A stretch of DNA of 14,367 nt from a virus (IMGVR_UViG_2654587792_000011), one strand, 5' to 3'; positions 524 through 14,367 are shown, counted from the first letter of the stretch. Notes: generated from the letters alone by a model not told the origin. Program-made: numbers and translations.

Positions 524-600
524 TGGCGCGTTGTACTGGATTCGAACCAGTGACCGATTGCTTAGAAGGCAATTGCTCTGTCCGGCTGAGCTAACAACGC
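524..600 (-). tRNA. argO: tRNA-Arg (anticodon UCU, reads AGA/AGG)
   Basis: 77-nt cloverleaf read by eye: GCGTTGT acceptor, GCTC/GAGC D-arm, ATTGC-CTTCTAA-GCAAT anticodon arm, ACTGG-TTCGAAT-CCAGT T-arm, encoded CCA. Confidence 0.92.
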
Positions 601-613
601 ATGATGCAGATAA

Positions 614-690
614 TGGACCGCCATCGGGGACTTGAACCCCGCGCAGCCAGCTTCGAAGGCTGGCGCTCTTTCCTGATGAGCTAATAGCGG
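614..690 (-). tRNA. argN: tRNA-Arg (anticodon UCG, reads CGA)
   Basis: 77-nt cloverleaf: CCGCTAT acceptor (one G.U pair), CCAGC-CTTCGAA-GCTGG anticodon arm, CGGGG-TTCAAGT-CCCCG T-arm, encoded CCA. Confidence 0.9.
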
Positions 691-697
691 TATGTGA

Positions 698-773
698 TGG
701 TGGCCCTTGCTGGATTTGAACCAGCGACCTGGCGATTATGAGTCGCTCGCTCTCACCACTGAGCTAAAGGGCC
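698..773 (-). tRNA. ileZ: tRNA with CAU anticodon, ileX/ileZ-like (Ile2, AUA after lysidine modification); Met by anticodon alone
   Basis: 76-nt cloverleaf GGCCCTT...AAGGGCC-A-CCA with anticodon loop CTCATAA. The body closely resembles the E. coli ileX sequence as I recall it. Confidence 0.88.
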
Positions 774-2455: not shown

Positions 2456-3006
2456 GACATTTTTTGAGCAAACGATTCTCGCATAGGGATGTATAGCGCA
2501 TATTCAGCAACAGCCAACCAATTAGCAATTCGCTTTTCGCATGTACTAAAACACCATTCCGGGTGCACCTCATTCAACAATTCAGCCATTTTGCGTTTAC
2601 TCATCCCCCGCCCTTCGTATCTTTGCCGCAGGATATCAATCAATCCAGGATAACGTGCAAGCGCTTTACTTATCACCCCATCAATGCGTAACGCCTCTGC
2701 ATCAGTACAGTGAGACAACCAGCTCTTCTGTCTGCCAGCGATCATCTCTCGCAAGAATGCTTCCAGCTCTGGTTTATCAATCCCTGACTCCCTGATTCTA
2801 CGCAGGGCTTCATTGATCGCGGTTTTTGTCAGTTTTTTGGATGTCAGCAACTGATTGAACATATTTCCTGGTTTGCCACCACCTATGTACGACCAACGCC
2901 CCCACATCCGTAATTTCCCCTGGATCCAGACGGCTTCCAGCGTTTTTAGACGTAAATGCTCGCCGCTTTTGCCTGTAATTTCCGGGTATATCATATTTAC
3001 GATCAC
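2452..3006 (-). CDS. late antiterminator Q-like protein (933W-Q type, no zinc finger)
   Basis: LRMWGRW...MFNQLLTSKK parallels the LERWGAW...FKGLITSK segment of 933W-type Q as I recall it. Has a C-terminal sigma-region-4-like HTH. GTG start at 3006 overlaps the rusA stop (GTGA); an alternative ATG lies at 2994. Position is between rusA and a promoter/terminator pair. Confidence 0.75.
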   Translation of the reverse strand: MIVNMIYPEITGKSGEHLRLKTLEAVWIQGKLRMWGRWSYIGGGKPGNMFNQLLTSKKLTKTAINEALRRIRESGIDKPELEAFLREMIAGRQKSWLSHCTDAEALRIDGVISKALARYPGLIDILRQRYEGRGMSKRKMAELLNEVHPEWCFSTCEKRIANWLAVAEYALYIPMRESFAQKMS

Positions 3007-3362
3007 TCACTCTCAATTTTGTAAATCTTCACGCCCAGCCGCCCCCCAGGAACGAGCTGACCGCGCACAATATTAATTTCATCAAACTGCTCGTCGTCTA
3101 TGAGAAGTCCGGCATGCGTCAGCGCATCCAGTGGTGCTTTCAGGATATTGTCCAGGTCACGACGACGCTTATCCGGTGGCTCTGCAATAATCTTTATCGC
3201 CAGCCGTCCGGACAGGTTTAATTTCAGCCGCTGCTCGCGAACAATTAGCGCCACATCCCGGCGATAACGCTCACCGGCTTTTGATACAAAATATGTGTTG
3301 TCACGACGTCGCCAGTAGGTGTTCACCGTTGGCGGGTAAGGCAAAACAAACTCTATACGCAT
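3003..3362 (-). CDS. rusA: Holliday junction resolvase RusA
   Basis: 119 aa. LPYPPTVNTYW...DLDNILKAPLDALTHAGLLIDDEQ is typical RusA. SD AGAGG lies 7 nt before the ATG. Confidence 0.9.
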   Translation of the reverse strand: MRIEFVLPYPPTVNTYWRRRDNTYFVSKAGERYRRDVALIVREQRLKLNLSGRLAIKIIAEPPDKRRRDLDNILKAPLDALTHAGLLIDDEQFDEINIVRGQLVPGGRLGVKIYKIESE

Positions 3363-9610: not shown

Positions 9611-10317
9611 CATCGCTGCCAACCAATAACCTGAAATAACCCCATTTTCGGGTGATACCAGCGAGTCCCTCGCGGTTCTGCTTCCTCCATAACCCGATAA
9701 AAAGCAGCCATAAACGGTTCCACAGCAACAATTGCGCGACGTGACAACAATCCGTCCGGCGTCATGAACTCATGTGTGTCTGTAGGAATTTGATAGGCGT
9801 TCACCAGATTGCGGCATTTATCATCTGACAAACCGGTTTTTGCTTTCAGTTGGCGATATCCGGCATAGCCCTCACGAATAGTGCCCTTTTTAATTTGCTC
9901 GACTGTTTCAGCAACGTGGCTGACTTTTTCTTCCACCTGAGTGATCCGTTTCTGTTGGCGAACGGCTTCAAGAGCCATCGCGGCAACCATTTCGATTTCG
10001 CTCATTGGCTTACGGATCTGTTCTTCCAGTTCGCGCCAGCGATCTACCAGGCGAGCTGTGAATTCAGGACAGAGCTGTGCGACGACAATGATGCTGTCGC
10101 GCTTACCTCGTTCACCTTCGAATACATACGCGCTAGAAAATCGGCGAGGCCCAAGTGATTGTTTATTCTCAATTTCCACAGTCTGTGGAAATTGGATGAT
10201 TCCCTTTTTAGCCAGTGTTTCAATAGTTCTCTTAACACTATCTGGTCGGCTTCCCACCAGCTCTGCGATCTCAACGCTGGTCATGGATGCTTTGCCGTTA
10301 AAAATTGCGGTGTTCAT
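9610..10317 (-). CDS. Rha-like / antirepressor-like phage regulator in the cII position
   Basis: 235 aa. N-terminus MTSVEIAELVGSRPDSVKRTIETLAKKG...VVAQLCPEFTARLVDRWRELE follows the Rha-family pattern. AGGAG SD. ATGA overlap with cro. Confidence 0.7.
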   Translation of the reverse strand: MNTAIFNGKASMTSVEIAELVGSRPDSVKRTIETLAKKGIIQFPQTVEIENKQSLGPRRFSSAYVFEGERGKRDSIIVVAQLCPEFTARLVDRWRELEEQIRKPMSEIEMVAAMALEAVRQQKRITQVEEKVSHVAETVEQIKKGTIREGYAGYRQLKAKTGLSDDKCRNLVNAYQIPTDTHEFMTPDGLLSRRAIVAVEPFMAAFYRVMEEAEPRGTRWYHPKMGLFQVIGWQR

Positions 10318-10604
10318 TGTTTATCTCCTGCGTGTATTCCATCCGCTCTGTGTGGTGAACTTGGATTTAGGCTTTTGCGTAACAAGTTAGGAATTCCATC
10401 TTCAGGGTGAGGATAAAGATCTGGCCTTAAGCCATGAGGCGTAACCTTCCATGCAACTACTTCACATACTCGTAAAACGAAACGAGCAGGAATTGTGCTT
10501 TTTGAAAACCACTGATTCACCGCTTGCGGCGTCACACCAAGATTTCGCGCTATGGCATTTTGCGCAATTAATGCACGAAGTTTGTCGTAATCATTTCCTT
10601 CCAT
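10314..10604 (-). CDS. cro: Cro-like HTH regulator (YdaS/Cro family)
   Basis: 96 aa. ARNLGVTPQAVNQWFSKSTIPARFVLRVCEV...LRPDLYP matches the YdaS/Cro-type HTH. Divergent from the repressor gene. Confidence 0.75.
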   Translation of the reverse strand: MEGNDYDKLRALIAQNAIARNLGVTPQAVNQWFSKSTIPARFVLRVCEVVAWKVTPHGLRPDLYPHPEDGIPNLLRKSLNPSSPHRADGIHAGDKQ

Positions 10605-10737
10605 AACAAAGCACCAATATTAACTTTATAAATCAAGAATACATCAAGTTTAAATTAACATGCAAATTACAAAAGGATCGAATACACTAAAATCAAGTAA
10701 AGATTTATCCTTGTAAAGAAACCCACAGGATTTGGTC
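10605..10737. promoter_or_regulatory. divergent PR/PRM-type control region with ATCAAG-type operator half-sites
   Basis: AT-rich 133-bp spacer. ATCAAG occurs at 10632, 10643 and 10692. The 17-mer ATCAAGTAAAGATTTAT (10692..10708) resembles the PL palindrome. Several -35/-10-like hexamers on both strands are not resolved. Confidence 0.5.
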
Positions 10738-11427
10738 ATGAAGAACGTCAAAAACACGGAAAATCGAATAGCCGCGATGCTGAAAGCAAAAGGATGGACT
10801 CAGGCTCAACTGGCCCGCAAGTTAGGTGTGAGTGCGCAATCAGTGCAGTACTGGACAACAGGAAAAACATTTCCACGGAGTGATAAGCTCGCGCATTTAT
10901 CAGAGATTAGCGGTTATCCACAATCCTGGTTCTTAGGTGAAGACTCCTCACCAACCTTTTCCTCGCAAGAGAAACACCAGACAAGAACAGATAGCGTCGT
11001 ATTTAATGTCCTTGATGTTGAGTTTAGTTGCGGTGATGGAACTCATGTCCGTGGTGACTTGATAGATGTAGTGCGCTCAATAGAACTTGATCCTGAATAT
11101 GCCCGACGTCTTGTTGGAAATCGGGCATTCAAAAATATAGAAATAGGTAACGCCAGAGGAGACAGTATGGCTCCCACAATCTCACCTGGCGACCTTCTTT
11201 TTCTTGATAAGACAGTAACTTATTTTGATGGCGATGGTATTTATGCATTTTGTTTTGATGGAGAATGCTACGTGAAAAGGCTTCAAAAAATTGGAAGCAA
11301 AATCATGGTGTTATCTGATAACCCCAATTATCAACCATGGAGCATCGAAAAAGAGGGGTTAGCTCTGCTTTATATCCAGTCTAAAGTGATCTCATCAGTA
11401 CCATTCAACATAAACAGATTTGGTTAG
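10738..11427 (+). CDS. cI: cI-type prophage repressor (XRE HTH + S24/LexA-like autopeptidase)
   Basis: HTH WTQAQLARKLGVSAQSVQYW. GDSMAP Ser143 and YVKRL Lys180 are 37 residues apart, as in LexA. Putative cleavage site Cys98-Gly99. ATG at 10738 with AGGA SD is preferred over the TTG at 10732. Confidence 0.9.
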   Translation: MKNVKNTENRIAAMLKAKGWTQAQLARKLGVSAQSVQYWTTGKTFPRSDKLAHLSEISGYPQSWFLGEDSSPTFSSQEKHQTRTDSVVFNVLDVEFSCGDGTHVRGDLIDVVRSIELDPEYARRLVGNRAFKNIEIGNARGDSMAPTISPGDLLFLDKTVTYFDGDGIYAFCFDGECYVKRLQKIGSKIMVLSDNPNYQPWSIEKEGLALLYIQSKVISSVPFNINRFG

Positions 11428-11438
11428 TCTTTGATTTT

Positions 11439-11461
11439 AACGGGCTTTGCCCGTTTTTTTT
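11439..11461 (+). terminator. rho-independent terminator after the repressor gene
   Basis: AACGGGC-TTT-GCCCGTT followed by a T-run of 8, 12 nt after the stop codon. Confidence 0.75.
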
Positions 11462-11491
11462 CTGCCTGAAATATACGATATCAATTTTTTC

Positions 11492-11520
11492 TTGACAGCC
11501 TGTTTCCCAAAACATAATAT
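11492..11520 (+). promoter_or_regulatory. PL-like early-left promoter
   Basis: TTGACA (11492..11497), 17 bp, TAATAT (11515..11520). The -35 is overlapped by ATCAATTTTTTCTTGAC (11480..11496), an operator-like 17-mer. Confidence 0.6.
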
Positions 11521-11526
11521 CGCACC

Positions 11527-11543
11527 ATCAATTATAACTTGAT
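11527..11543. promoter_or_regulatory. palindromic operator at the PL start site
   Basis: ATCAATTATAACTTGAT has perfect ATCAA/TTGAT arms and starts 7 bp after the -10 hexamer. It shares its half-site with the cro/cI intergenic repeats. Confidence 0.5.
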
Positions 11544-11573
11544 TTGATTCAATTTAAAATTGTTGGCGGATAT

Positions 11574-12122
11574 ATGAAGACACTAAAAGCAACTCCAGAA
11601 ACAACTAATTTTATCAACTGCGGCTGTGTTACGCTTAAGGGCTTAGAACTTGATTCCTTTGCATTAAATATTGCAAATTTGCTAAGTGCTGTACGCACAT
11701 TCCATCTTCTGGATTGTGCTCGCTCAAAGGAACTGGGCATTGAGGTAATGGAATTTATCCATGAATATGCTCTATCTGCTGCTTCTCCTGCACAACAAAA
11801 ACAATCCTTCCCTGAAAGCTGGCTGGTTAACCTTCGCACCCAACGCGAAGCCTGCGGCTTAACAACCGCCGAACTCGCCAGGCTGCTCGATCTCGATGAA
11901 GAAATTATCATCCAGTGGGAGAGCGGAGAGTATGAACCAACTATCAGTATGCTTATCCCACTGGCAAATATTCTTGGCTGCGATCCGATGTGCCTGTTAA
12001 CTGGTGAGGTTACTCCTCCGGAGCAACCAAAAAGTGAGGAGCAGCAACACCATGACGCATCTCAACAAGTTTGCCCCTTATCTCGCGAAGCTCTTCTGCG
12101 GAAGAACCAATACCAATGGTGA
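11574..12122 (+). CDS. first PL-operon gene: novel N-terminal domain + XRE-type HTH + disordered tail
   Basis: 182 aa from ATG 11574 (the track TTG at 11544 is less likely). HTH GLTTAELARLLDLDEEIIIQWESGEYEPT. Residues 24-70 are paralogous to the C-terminus of the 12251..12616 product. Confidence 0.7.
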   Translation: MKTLKATPETTNFINCGCVTLKGLELDSFALNIANLLSAVRTFHLLDCARSKELGIEVMEFIHEYALSAASPAQQKQSFPESWLVNLRTQREACGLTTAELARLLDLDEEIIIQWESGEYEPTISMLIPLANILGCDPMCLLTGEVTPPEQPKSEEQQHHDASQQVCPLSREALLRKNQYQW

Positions 12123-12270
12123 CATAATCGCCGCTTCGCCCTTCAAGGTACATGCGAACATTTTTATCAATCATTGCGGAAACAGTCTCAATATGAAAAC
12201 ACTTCTGAGACTCGCTATATAGCAGAACATATAAGTCAGCTGAGGAAGCCATGAAAAAGTTCGAAAACAT
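12010..12270 (-). CDS. antisense-embedded small protein (86 aa), unknown function
   Basis: GGAG (12281..12278) lies 7 nt before ATG 12270. Perfect TATAAT at 12302..12297. Globular-looking sequence (LYVLLYSESQKCFHIETV...). Fills the 128-nt gap between plus-strand genes. Overlaps neighbours by 113 nt and 20 nt. Confidence 0.45.
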   Translation of the reverse strand: MFSNFFMASSADLYVLLYSESQKCFHIETVSAMIDKNVRMYLEGRSGDYVTIGIGSSAEELREIRGKLVEMRHGVAAPHFLVAPEE

Positions 12271-12616
12271 AACTGTTCTCCATGTTGATGACTTTGATTA
12301 TACAAACCCGGAACTTCTCCCGGAGGTTGTAAAGGCAATGGATGTTGCCGATATAGTGATTAGAGAAAAGAGAATTGTCAAAAACAGGCTCGCATGCACT
12401 TCAGGAGCAATGACAGAAACAACCTCACAGCAAGATAATTACGAAGGCATTTGTCTGGAGCCTGATTCATTTGCGGTAAATGTTTATCATTTATTGCATG
12501 CAACACAGGTATTACATATGTCCAGTAATCACGAAACGAAAACACTCGGCAGCGAAATTCTGAGTTTTGCATGTGAGTATACAAAAGCTGCTGCCGAAAA
12601 AGAATTAGCGCAATAA
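12251..12616 (+). CDS. orphan protein (121 aa) sharing a domain with the HTH protein but lacking an HTH
   Basis: GAGG SD 5 nt before the ATG. Residues 69-115 align ungapped with residues 24-70 of the 11574..12122 product (20/47 identical by hand count). Confidence 0.65.
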   Translation: MKKFENITVLHVDDFDYTNPELLPEVVKAMDVADIVIREKRIVKNRLACTSGAMTETTSQQDNYEGICLEPDSFAVNVYHLLHATQVLHMSSNHETKTLGSEILSFACEYTKAAAEKELAQ

Positions 12617-12694
12617 CAACAAATATGCCCTGAACGTTTATTGCGGTTTTATCGCCGGGGATTGTTACAACCTTAATCCACAGGAGGCTTTATT

Positions 12695-12808
12695 GTGACT
12701 TTTATAAAGAATATGGCATCACACAAGACCGCCTGCCTTATTGCACAATACGGTGAAAATTACATGCATATTGCCTGCTTATTTCTGCGTAAAGCATACG
12801 GGAGATAA
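12695..12808 (+). CDS. 37-aa micro-ORF (below the ORF-track cutoff)
   Basis: AGGAGG (12682..12687) lies 7 nt before GTG 12695. Product MTFIKNMASHKTACLIAQYGENYMHIACLFLRKAYGR. Its stop is 2 nt before the next ATG, and its 3' end supplies that gene's GGGAGA SD. Confidence 0.35.
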   Translation: MTFIKNMASHKTACLIAQYGENYMHIACLFLRKAYGR

Positions 12809-12810
12809 TA

Positions 12811-13023
12811 ATGCATCAGAAAACAGCAGAACACGAACAAACCAGAATATTGCTGACCATCAAAAACGGGAAAGTAATATTCATTCTCCATGTTCATGAC
12901 GATGAACTTGTAGGAACTCTTTCAACATTCCTGTTTATTGCAGAAAAGGCAGGATATGACGTTATTGCACCAGCAGATGAAGATGAAGATGAAGATGAAG
13001 ATGAAGATGAAGATGAGGAATAA
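12811..13023 (+). CDS. 70-aa protein with a poly-(Asp-Glu) C-terminal tail
   Basis: GGGAGA SD. Compact core followed by the tail ADEDEDEDEDEDEDEE. No recognised family. Confidence 0.65.
   Translation: MHQKTAEHEQTRILLTIKNGKVIFILHVHDDELVGTLSTFLFIAEKAGYDVIAPADEDEDEDEDEDEDEE
12976..13017 (+). repeat. in-frame hexanucleotide microsatellite (GATGAA)x6 + GATGAG
   Basis: Six exact tandem GATGAA units (12976..13011) plus one variant unit, encoding the acidic tail. Confidence 0.97.
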
Positions 13024-13806: not shown

Positions 13807-13875
13807 AGTGGCACACTGAATTTGGCCACCTGAACAGAGGTGATATGCTCACCTCAGAACAACACAGGTGCTCCA

Positions 13876-14367
<492 letters not shown>

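Follow-up and report, generated by a model that had tools for sequence, protein, structure and literature searches.

Why does a short reading frame run head-on against the early-left operon of a lambdoid prophage, overlapping the genes on both sides, and does it encode a protein that the phage or its host would use? The question is raised by a stretch of 14,367 nucleotides (the window), a phiP27-like lambdoid prophage with 99.4% identity to Escherichia phage PhiR49_2 over 11400-12900. An earlier note on this DNA had described an 86-aa minus-strand frame that overlaps the preceding plus-strand gene by 113 nt (12010-12122) and the following one by 20 nt (12251-12270), bridges an otherwise uncovered gap of 128 nt (12123-12250), and contains the ATG of the following gene (12251). 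All of these features are present in the sequence. Here we ask which of the overlapping frames is under selection, how the overlaps arose, and what the position of the frame suggests about its role.

Layout of the locus

The plus strand of the window corresponds to the leftward direction in lambda. The minus-strand frame, hereafter the small gene, stands second in the early-left (PL) operon, on the opposite strand, between L10 and L08 (Table 1). Operator-like repeats, ATCAA(N)TTGAT / TCAAG, are common to the cro-cI intergenic region (10633-10703) and the region of the PL-like promoter (11480-11554).

Table 1. Features of the immunity and early-left region and of the small gene, in window coordinates
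Feature	Position	Strand	Remarks
tRNA-Arg(TCT), tRNA-Arg(TCG), CAT-anticodon tRNA	524-773	-	
cro-like gene	10314-10604	-	
cI	10732-11427	+	
cI terminator	11439-11455	+	promoter/terminator scan; upstream of the PL-like promoter
PL-like promoter, TTGACA-17-TAATAT	11492-11520	+	promoter scan; predicted to drive L10 and L08 toward the small gene, head-on
L10, HTH regulator gene	11574-12122	+	first PL gene
L10 conserved part, variable N-domain plus HTH_3	11574-12005	+	ends ...CDPMCLLTG; Pfam HTH_3 at residues 87-138
L10 run-on tail, 38 codons	12006-12122	+	antisense to small-gene codons 50-86; not conserved
Small gene, ATG-start 86-codon ORF	12010-12270	-	reads 12270 to 12010; phrog_6104 member
L08 Shine-Dalgarno, GAGGAAG	12242-12248	+	inside the small gene
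L08, 121 aa	12251-12616	+	phrog_5451, E 4e-83
Small-gene Shine-Dalgarno, GGAG	12281-12278	-	7 nt before the ATG at 12270
Orphan TATAAT	12302-12297	-	upstream of the small gene
Candidate promoter, TTGACA (12381-12376)-17-CACTAT (12358-12353)	12353-12381	-	within L08 codons 35-44

Several other features of the window are recorded here for completeness. A minus-strand promoter-like element, TTTAAA-16-TATAAT (11531-11558), faces the PL-like promoter, their predicted starts being separated by a few bases, and transcription from it would run toward the 3' end of cI; the element holds the other perfect TATAAT of the window. Downstream of L08, a 70-aa plus-strand ORF (12811-13023) carries a C-terminal pure acidic run, ADEDEDEDEDEDEDEE, whose opposite strand forms a poly-Ser shadow ORF. 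Further on, an ORF at 13840-14178 (+) resembles, as we take it, an IS3-family transposase OrfA, which would suggest an IS insertion in or beside the early-left arm. The tRNA cluster at the other end of the window is presumably the ileZ-argN-argO set of Stx-type phages.

Coding evidence for the small gene

The small gene belongs to a recognizable protein family. Residues 7-86 of its product match the phrog_6104 profile over all of its 80 positions (1-80; E 1.4e-49), and all 50 diverse relatives tested match the same profile. Close homologues (n = 18, 58-97% identity, 82-88 aa) are found in E. coli, E. albertii, Salmonella and Citrobacter, and nearly all of about 80 related IMG/VR prophage loci carry the 86-aa frame uninterrupted. 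A profile search of 1.84 billion representatives returned 396 cluster representatives at E<=1e-3, most of them 60-100 aa long, and the distant relatives have in common the motif VLLWSxSQxxFHIET..M...N......DY..L.....EEA.

Selection on the frame was measured by Nei-Gojobori comparisons between diverged lineages. In codons 8-49, the part free of overlap with L10, dN/dS is 0.04-0.16. Inside the L10 overlap, codons 50-70 give 0.06-0.5 where the ratio is measurable, dS being often saturated there, and the variable C-terminal tail (codons 71-86) gives 0.2-1.0. The earlier note had proposed such a comparison of the two overlapping frames, and purifying selection is found on the minus one. It had also named the pattern that would speak against a gene, namely homologous loci with the minus frame broken by stops and the plus-strand tail conserved. 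The homologues display the reverse, with the minus frame open and the plus-strand tail shortened or replaced.

These data bear on the simplest alternative, in which the minus-strand ORF is a spurious shadow and the real content of the interval is the L10 tail together with a 72-aa plus-strand ORF (12004-12222), or a non-coding spacer. Antisense frames of coding DNA often remain open, the 72-aa ORF does span the gap, and RefSeq/PGAP annotates no minus-strand gene here. However, the 72-aa ORF matches no family and is interrupted by stops in the ASU11-type, L088 and L090 lineages; the L10 tail is not conserved; and it is the minus frame that is under strong purifying selection, with 396 distant relatives and a confidently predicted fold. 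The comparative data refute this alternative, to which we give scarcely any credence. The claim that a genuine gene lies opposite the early-left operon, conserved, under purifying selection and part of phrog_6104, is borne out, and 12010-12270 on the minus strand is almost certainly protein-coding.

The small protein is a soluble, acidic alpha/beta member of this widespread, uncharacterised and mostly phage-borne family. It has a mass of 9.7 kDa, a pI of 5.3 and no membrane segment. In the AlphaFold2 model a disordered segment, residues 1-13, precedes a beta-beta-alpha-beta-alpha domain that is predicted with confidence (mean pLDDT 86; above 93 in the core). Some relatives have Ile or Thr at residue 7, so translation must start at M1 (12270) and not at the internal M7.

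Searches for a function returned little. The small protein matches no Pfam or NCBIfam family and no solved fold, and no defence, toxin or enzyme signature was detected in it. The PADLOC defence-system models matched neither the small protein nor L08, and gave only generic HTH matches for L10. Membership in the GIY-YIG nuclease superfamily was considered and rejected, neither the profile similarity nor the catalytic Arg/Glu/Tyr set being found. When genome contigs were scanned with the family alignment, none of the 29 pattern matches was confirmed by tblastn.

The adjacent rare codons ATA-AGG that had been pointed out in the small gene are there, encoding Ile64-Arg65 on the minus strand (12081-12076). 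Their pairing with the tRNAs carried by the phage is, judging from the sequence, probably only a coincidence of content.

The overlap with L10

The most conspicuous feature of the locus is the 113-nt stretch in which the end of L10 lies antisense to the small gene, and it has the look of a designed feature. Our analysis points instead to passive run-on. The L10-type HTH domain ends in ...PLANxLxCDPMWLLTG in most lineages, and what follows differs from lineage to lineage in both length (7, 13, 20, 34, 38, 41 or 48 codons) and sequence, the tails being unrelated. The overlap between the two genes varies accordingly, at 143, 119, 113, 110, 101, 92, 59, 38, 20 and -28 nt. The last of these values comes from a locus whose truncated L10 stops 28 nt short of the small gene, and ASU11-type phages overlap by just 20-38 nt. 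Among 69 close loci, two independent nonsense alleles occur in the L10 tail (W>* at 12118 and Q>* at 12066), both of them synonymous or conservative in the small protein; the same 69 loci hold no nonsense allele in the small ORF.

The geometry of the junction suggests how the overlap arises. The stop codon of the small gene (12010-12012) lies 4 nt past the last conserved L10 codon (12003-12005), and no stop or terminator is present between the end of the HTH domain and the small gene; hence the L10 frame continues along the strand opposite the small gene to a chance stop. When the synonymous codons of the small gene were re-sampled 20,000 times, the L10 frame ran to its first stop with a median of 38 codons, identical to the length observed (P(>=38) = 0.64). 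Because the recoded median equals the observed tail, the 113-nt overlap is explained as a by-product of the missing stop. The length of the overlap is what chance gives, whereas the conservation of the small ORF exceeds chance.

An alternative is that the overlap is truly dual coding, with the L10 tail and the C-terminal part of the small protein selected together. Most lineages do overlap (by 20-143 nt), always in the same relative phase, with first codon position opposite first, and the phrog_4739 profile includes the tail. Dual coding implies that both frames are conserved and under purifying selection, yet the L10 tail is variable and tolerates nonsense alleles, its sequences are unrelated save for the composition that the antisense strand imposes, one lineage has no overlap at all and the ASU11 type very little, and the overlap length is that expected from synonymous recoding. 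Co-selection of the two frames is therefore extremely improbable. In 12010-12122 the selected frame is the minus one, and we are confident that the overlap reflects passive run-on of the L10 frame and no dual coding.

The overlap with L08 and the start signals

At its other end the small gene meets L08 head to head. The earlier note had given the small gene a GGAG Shine-Dalgarno sequence of its own, and this is indeed found in the expected place. It falls in L08 codons 10-11 and is kept in 7 of 8 aligned lineages, including the third position of L08 codon 10; the remaining lineage, L090, has GGTGGAC. Salmonella and Citrobacter loci (L084, L086-L089) encode a 121-aa L08 homologue with the same 20-nt overlap at the 5' end of the small gene. 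For L090-L092, gene calling placed the L08 start at an internal Met, and the in-frame upstream M1 restores the 20-nt geometry. The 121-codon L08 frame is open in all lineages, with pN < pS in its N-terminal half. From these alignments, the 20-nt overlap and both Shine-Dalgarno sequences are conserved in the lineages compared.

The annotation of this end is at variance with these observations in the one RefSeq/PGAP record examined in detail, E. coli O55:H7 RM12579. There L08 is a 68-aa product starting from M54, about 290 nt are left unannotated, and nothing is annotated on the minus strand (window 12251-12409; L098 2634-2920).

Two small observations concern the shared start. The palindrome CATG (12250-12253) lets the start codon of L08 and the Met7 codon of the small protein share two bases. 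In one locus (L067), a T>C change at 12251 converts Met7 of the small protein to Thr and the L08 start from ATG to GTG.

L08 also resembles part of L10. The N-domain of L10 (11574-11790) and the C-domain of L08 (12410-12616) are homologous, in that L10 residues 24-72 match phrog_4587 and phrog_5451, both of them L08 families. Variation between lineages is found in these two domains, and conservation in the HTH domain and the N-domain of L08. The homology hints that L08 could pair with L10.

Promoter, terminator and RNA signals

The perfect TATAAT that had been noted upstream of the small gene is present, although it is not conserved. No -35 hexamer lies 16-18 nt upstream of it, the promoter scan found no minus-strand promoter upstream of the small gene, and the site reads TATAAC, TGTAAT or TGTGAT in 3 of 8 lineages, with loss of A2 or T6. 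Perfect TATAAT hexamers are rare in the window, which holds two against 4.75 expected by chance.

A second element lies further upstream, within L08. TTGACA-17-CACTAT is the sole promoter-like element with a fixed position in all 8 lineages, its spacer varying in sequence and constant in length. Synonymous sites within its hexamers are nearly invariant, whereas all seven of the other L08 codons with an invariant amino acid vary (Fisher's exact test, about 0.02, calculated by hand across lineages that are not independent). The putative -10, CACTAT, is weak (3/6), and the site coincides with the conserved L08 motifs ADIVI and VKNR. We regard this element as the best promoter candidate for the small gene, not as a proven one.

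Other signals were sought around the gene. The scan gave no minus-strand terminator downstream of it, and no inverted-repeat operators were found near the candidate promoters. A terminator-like hairpin at 12324-12307, upstream of the TATAAT, was considered as a conserved attenuator and rejected, as its consensus energy is -2.7 kcal/mol and its pairs break in several lineages. Rfam returned no credible match, and no conserved RNA structure was found upstream of the small gene.

These results also bear on the idea that the locus is mainly a cis-antisense RNA controlling L10 or L08, in the manner of OOP against cII or sas against sieB, with the ORF secondary. A minus-strand transcript would be fully complementary to the translation-initiation region of L08 and to the 3' end of L10, and lambdoid immunity regions often encode antisense RNAs (PMC7067206). 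Nevertheless, selection acts at the protein level, with low dN/dS and saturated dS, distant homologues have only protein motifs in common, and neither an Rfam match nor a conserved upstream structure was found. We consider an RNA as the main product very unlikely; the transcript may have an RNA role besides that of the protein.

Distribution and dispensability

The small gene comes and goes among related phages. In phiP27, window positions 12006-12163, which comprise the 3' 158 nt of the small gene, are replaced by an unrelated segment of 520 nt (L002 1675-2194). phiP27 thus keeps L10 and L08 without an intact small gene. The replacement segment has ORFs of its own, an 82-aa frame on the plus strand and, on the minus strand, the 59-aa frame annotated as L09; L09 was considered as a homologue of the small gene and rejected, since it is a different ORF that lies in the replacement segment. 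That the junction falls inside the small gene marks a point of recombination or moron exchange. A search of the literature found nothing relevant on phiP27 L09 or on PhiR49/ECOR13.

Of 5426 complete E. coli genomes, 229 contain a match, and in 151 of these the match covers at least 80% of the query. An intact copy is missing from roughly a third of the matching genomes, and most partial matches, among the matches listed, are of the phiP27 type. Replaced in phiP27 and absent or partial in some matching genomes, the small gene is, by this genomic evidence, apparently dispensable. Its GC content (0.44, against 0.39-0.45 in the neighbouring genes) does not set it apart from its surroundings in the way that a moron of distinct composition would be.

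More distant members of the family recur in similar settings. Those at L094/L095, L099 and L103 lie head-on within an early operon, beside the repressor or cro, with the divergent neighbour starting 11-13 nt away in each case; one distant member follows ImmR/ImmA on the same strand. Some phrog_6104-family members are chromosomal and not in phages. In one such setting (L100-L102, approximately 3001-3243) the chromosomal order is conserved as lipid desaturase, family gene, methyltransferase, chorismate synthase; in another (L096/L097) the family member sits in a non-phage island with Band_7, DUF4337 and an NTP-transferase/HepT pair.

Among close lineages, the small gene is always accompanied by the HTH end of L10 and the N-domain of L08. 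This invites the proposal that the three genes form a module in the lysis-lysogeny decision, in which head-on transcription and mRNA pairing across the 20-nt overlap act as a toggle. The overlap covers the start codon of L08, and the L08 Shine-Dalgarno sequence is just inside the small gene; expression of L08 and of the small protein would then be mutually exclusive. Prophages of E. coli, Salmonella and Citrobacter retain the three segments as a block even as the flanking domains vary, the 20-nt overlap and both Shine-Dalgarno sequences are conserved, and the homology of the L10 N-domain with the L08 C-domain hints at an L10-L08 interaction. However, distant family members occur without L10 or L08, phiP27, which we take to be a viable phage, retains L10 and L08 without an intact small gene, and physical linkage alone would hold three segments together. 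A three-gene toggle is unlikely, in our judgement, though less so than the other alternatives weighed above.

Discussion

The explanation that we favour is that the small gene is its own transcription unit, read from a sigma-70 promoter that lies within the 5' half of L08. The best candidate for this promoter is the conserved TTGACA-17-CACTAT element, to which the orphan TATAAT may add in this phage. The small protein would be made in the lysogen, while cI keeps PL shut, as a dispensable accessory protein. After induction, head-on transcription from PL, together with a fully complementary PL mRNA, would shut the small gene down.

Taken as a whole, this explanation, comprising a real gene, a passive L10 overlap and a lysogen-expressed accessory role, has our moderate confidence. 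The accessory role transcribed against PL, considered separately, strikes us as an evenly balanced proposition. Since the protein matches no defence model, Pfam or NCBIfam family or solved fold, it is genomic context that points to such a role. The earlier note had already raised a lysogen-expressed moron; the position, orientation and dispensability of the gene fit that description, and its expression in the lysogen is something that we infer.

It is tempting to speculate more broadly. The phrog_6104 family could represent a new class of immunity-region factors, whose recurrent head-on insertion into early operons with zero spacer gates their expression by collision and pairing with the early lytic transcript. 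The small protein, L10 and L08 would then make up a switch of three components, hitherto unrecognised, that governs lysis-lysogeny or superinfection in the phiP27-like prophages of Enterobacteriaceae. We hold this wider scheme to be distinctly unlikely.

The small gene alone reveals no new mechanism. Its more immediate value is as a correction to annotation, as the gene is unannotated in all 16 full-length RefSeq E. coli matches listed and in the phage records PhiR49_2 and ASU11, and L08 is called too short in the one record that we followed closely. The locus also illustrates in detail how a long antisense overlap of designed appearance is accounted for by passive run-on of a frame. Finally, an uncharacterised family, with 396 cluster representatives and neither a Pfam entry nor a solved relative, recurs in a sieB-like counter-oriented slot beside phage repressors, which makes phrog_6104 a reasonable candidate for screens of exclusion, defence or regulatory activity.

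Comparison with known systems

At the level of fold, the small protein bears only a weak resemblance to the GIY-YIG nuclease fold and to MbtH-like proteins. Antisense overprinting pairs and the long 3' convergent overlaps of compact phages offer a likeness in arrangement, in that opposite-strand ORFs here share 113 nt. Unlike overprinting pairs, only one partner of that overlap is under selection. At the other end, residues 1-13 of the small protein, disordered in the model, form an N-terminal extension that shares the 20 nt with L08.

The region between the repressor and N is a known hotspot for accessory (moron) genes, which are typically oriented antisense to the lytic genes (PMC7067206). 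With moron loci such as rexAB, bstA and STMMW_20121, the last of them antisense to lytic genes, the small gene has in common its place in the mosaic hotspot beside the repressor, a direction opposed to that of the lytic genes, and a patchy occurrence among related phages. Unlike them, it has no terminator of its own that we could find, no distinct GC content and no room for an intergenic promoter, and it is wedged between two genes of lytic direction that it overlaps at both ends.

The closest parallel in position is lambda sieB. This non-essential superinfection-exclusion gene, also present in P22 and Rac, is expressed from the prophage. In the lambda annotation sieB (34482-35036, +) abuts the stop of N at 35037. 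Like the small gene, it follows the first PL gene immediately and reads from the other strand, meeting that gene convergently without a spacer and diverging from the next PL gene. The proteins themselves differ. SieB is annotated with 184 aa and is described as membrane-associated, whereas the small protein has 86 aa and is soluble and acidic, and homology was rejected when the family profile was compared with lambda SieB by hhalign (probability 0.1%). By this comparison, the small gene sits, and would work, like a counter-oriented accessory gene of the sieB type, without being a member of the SieB family.
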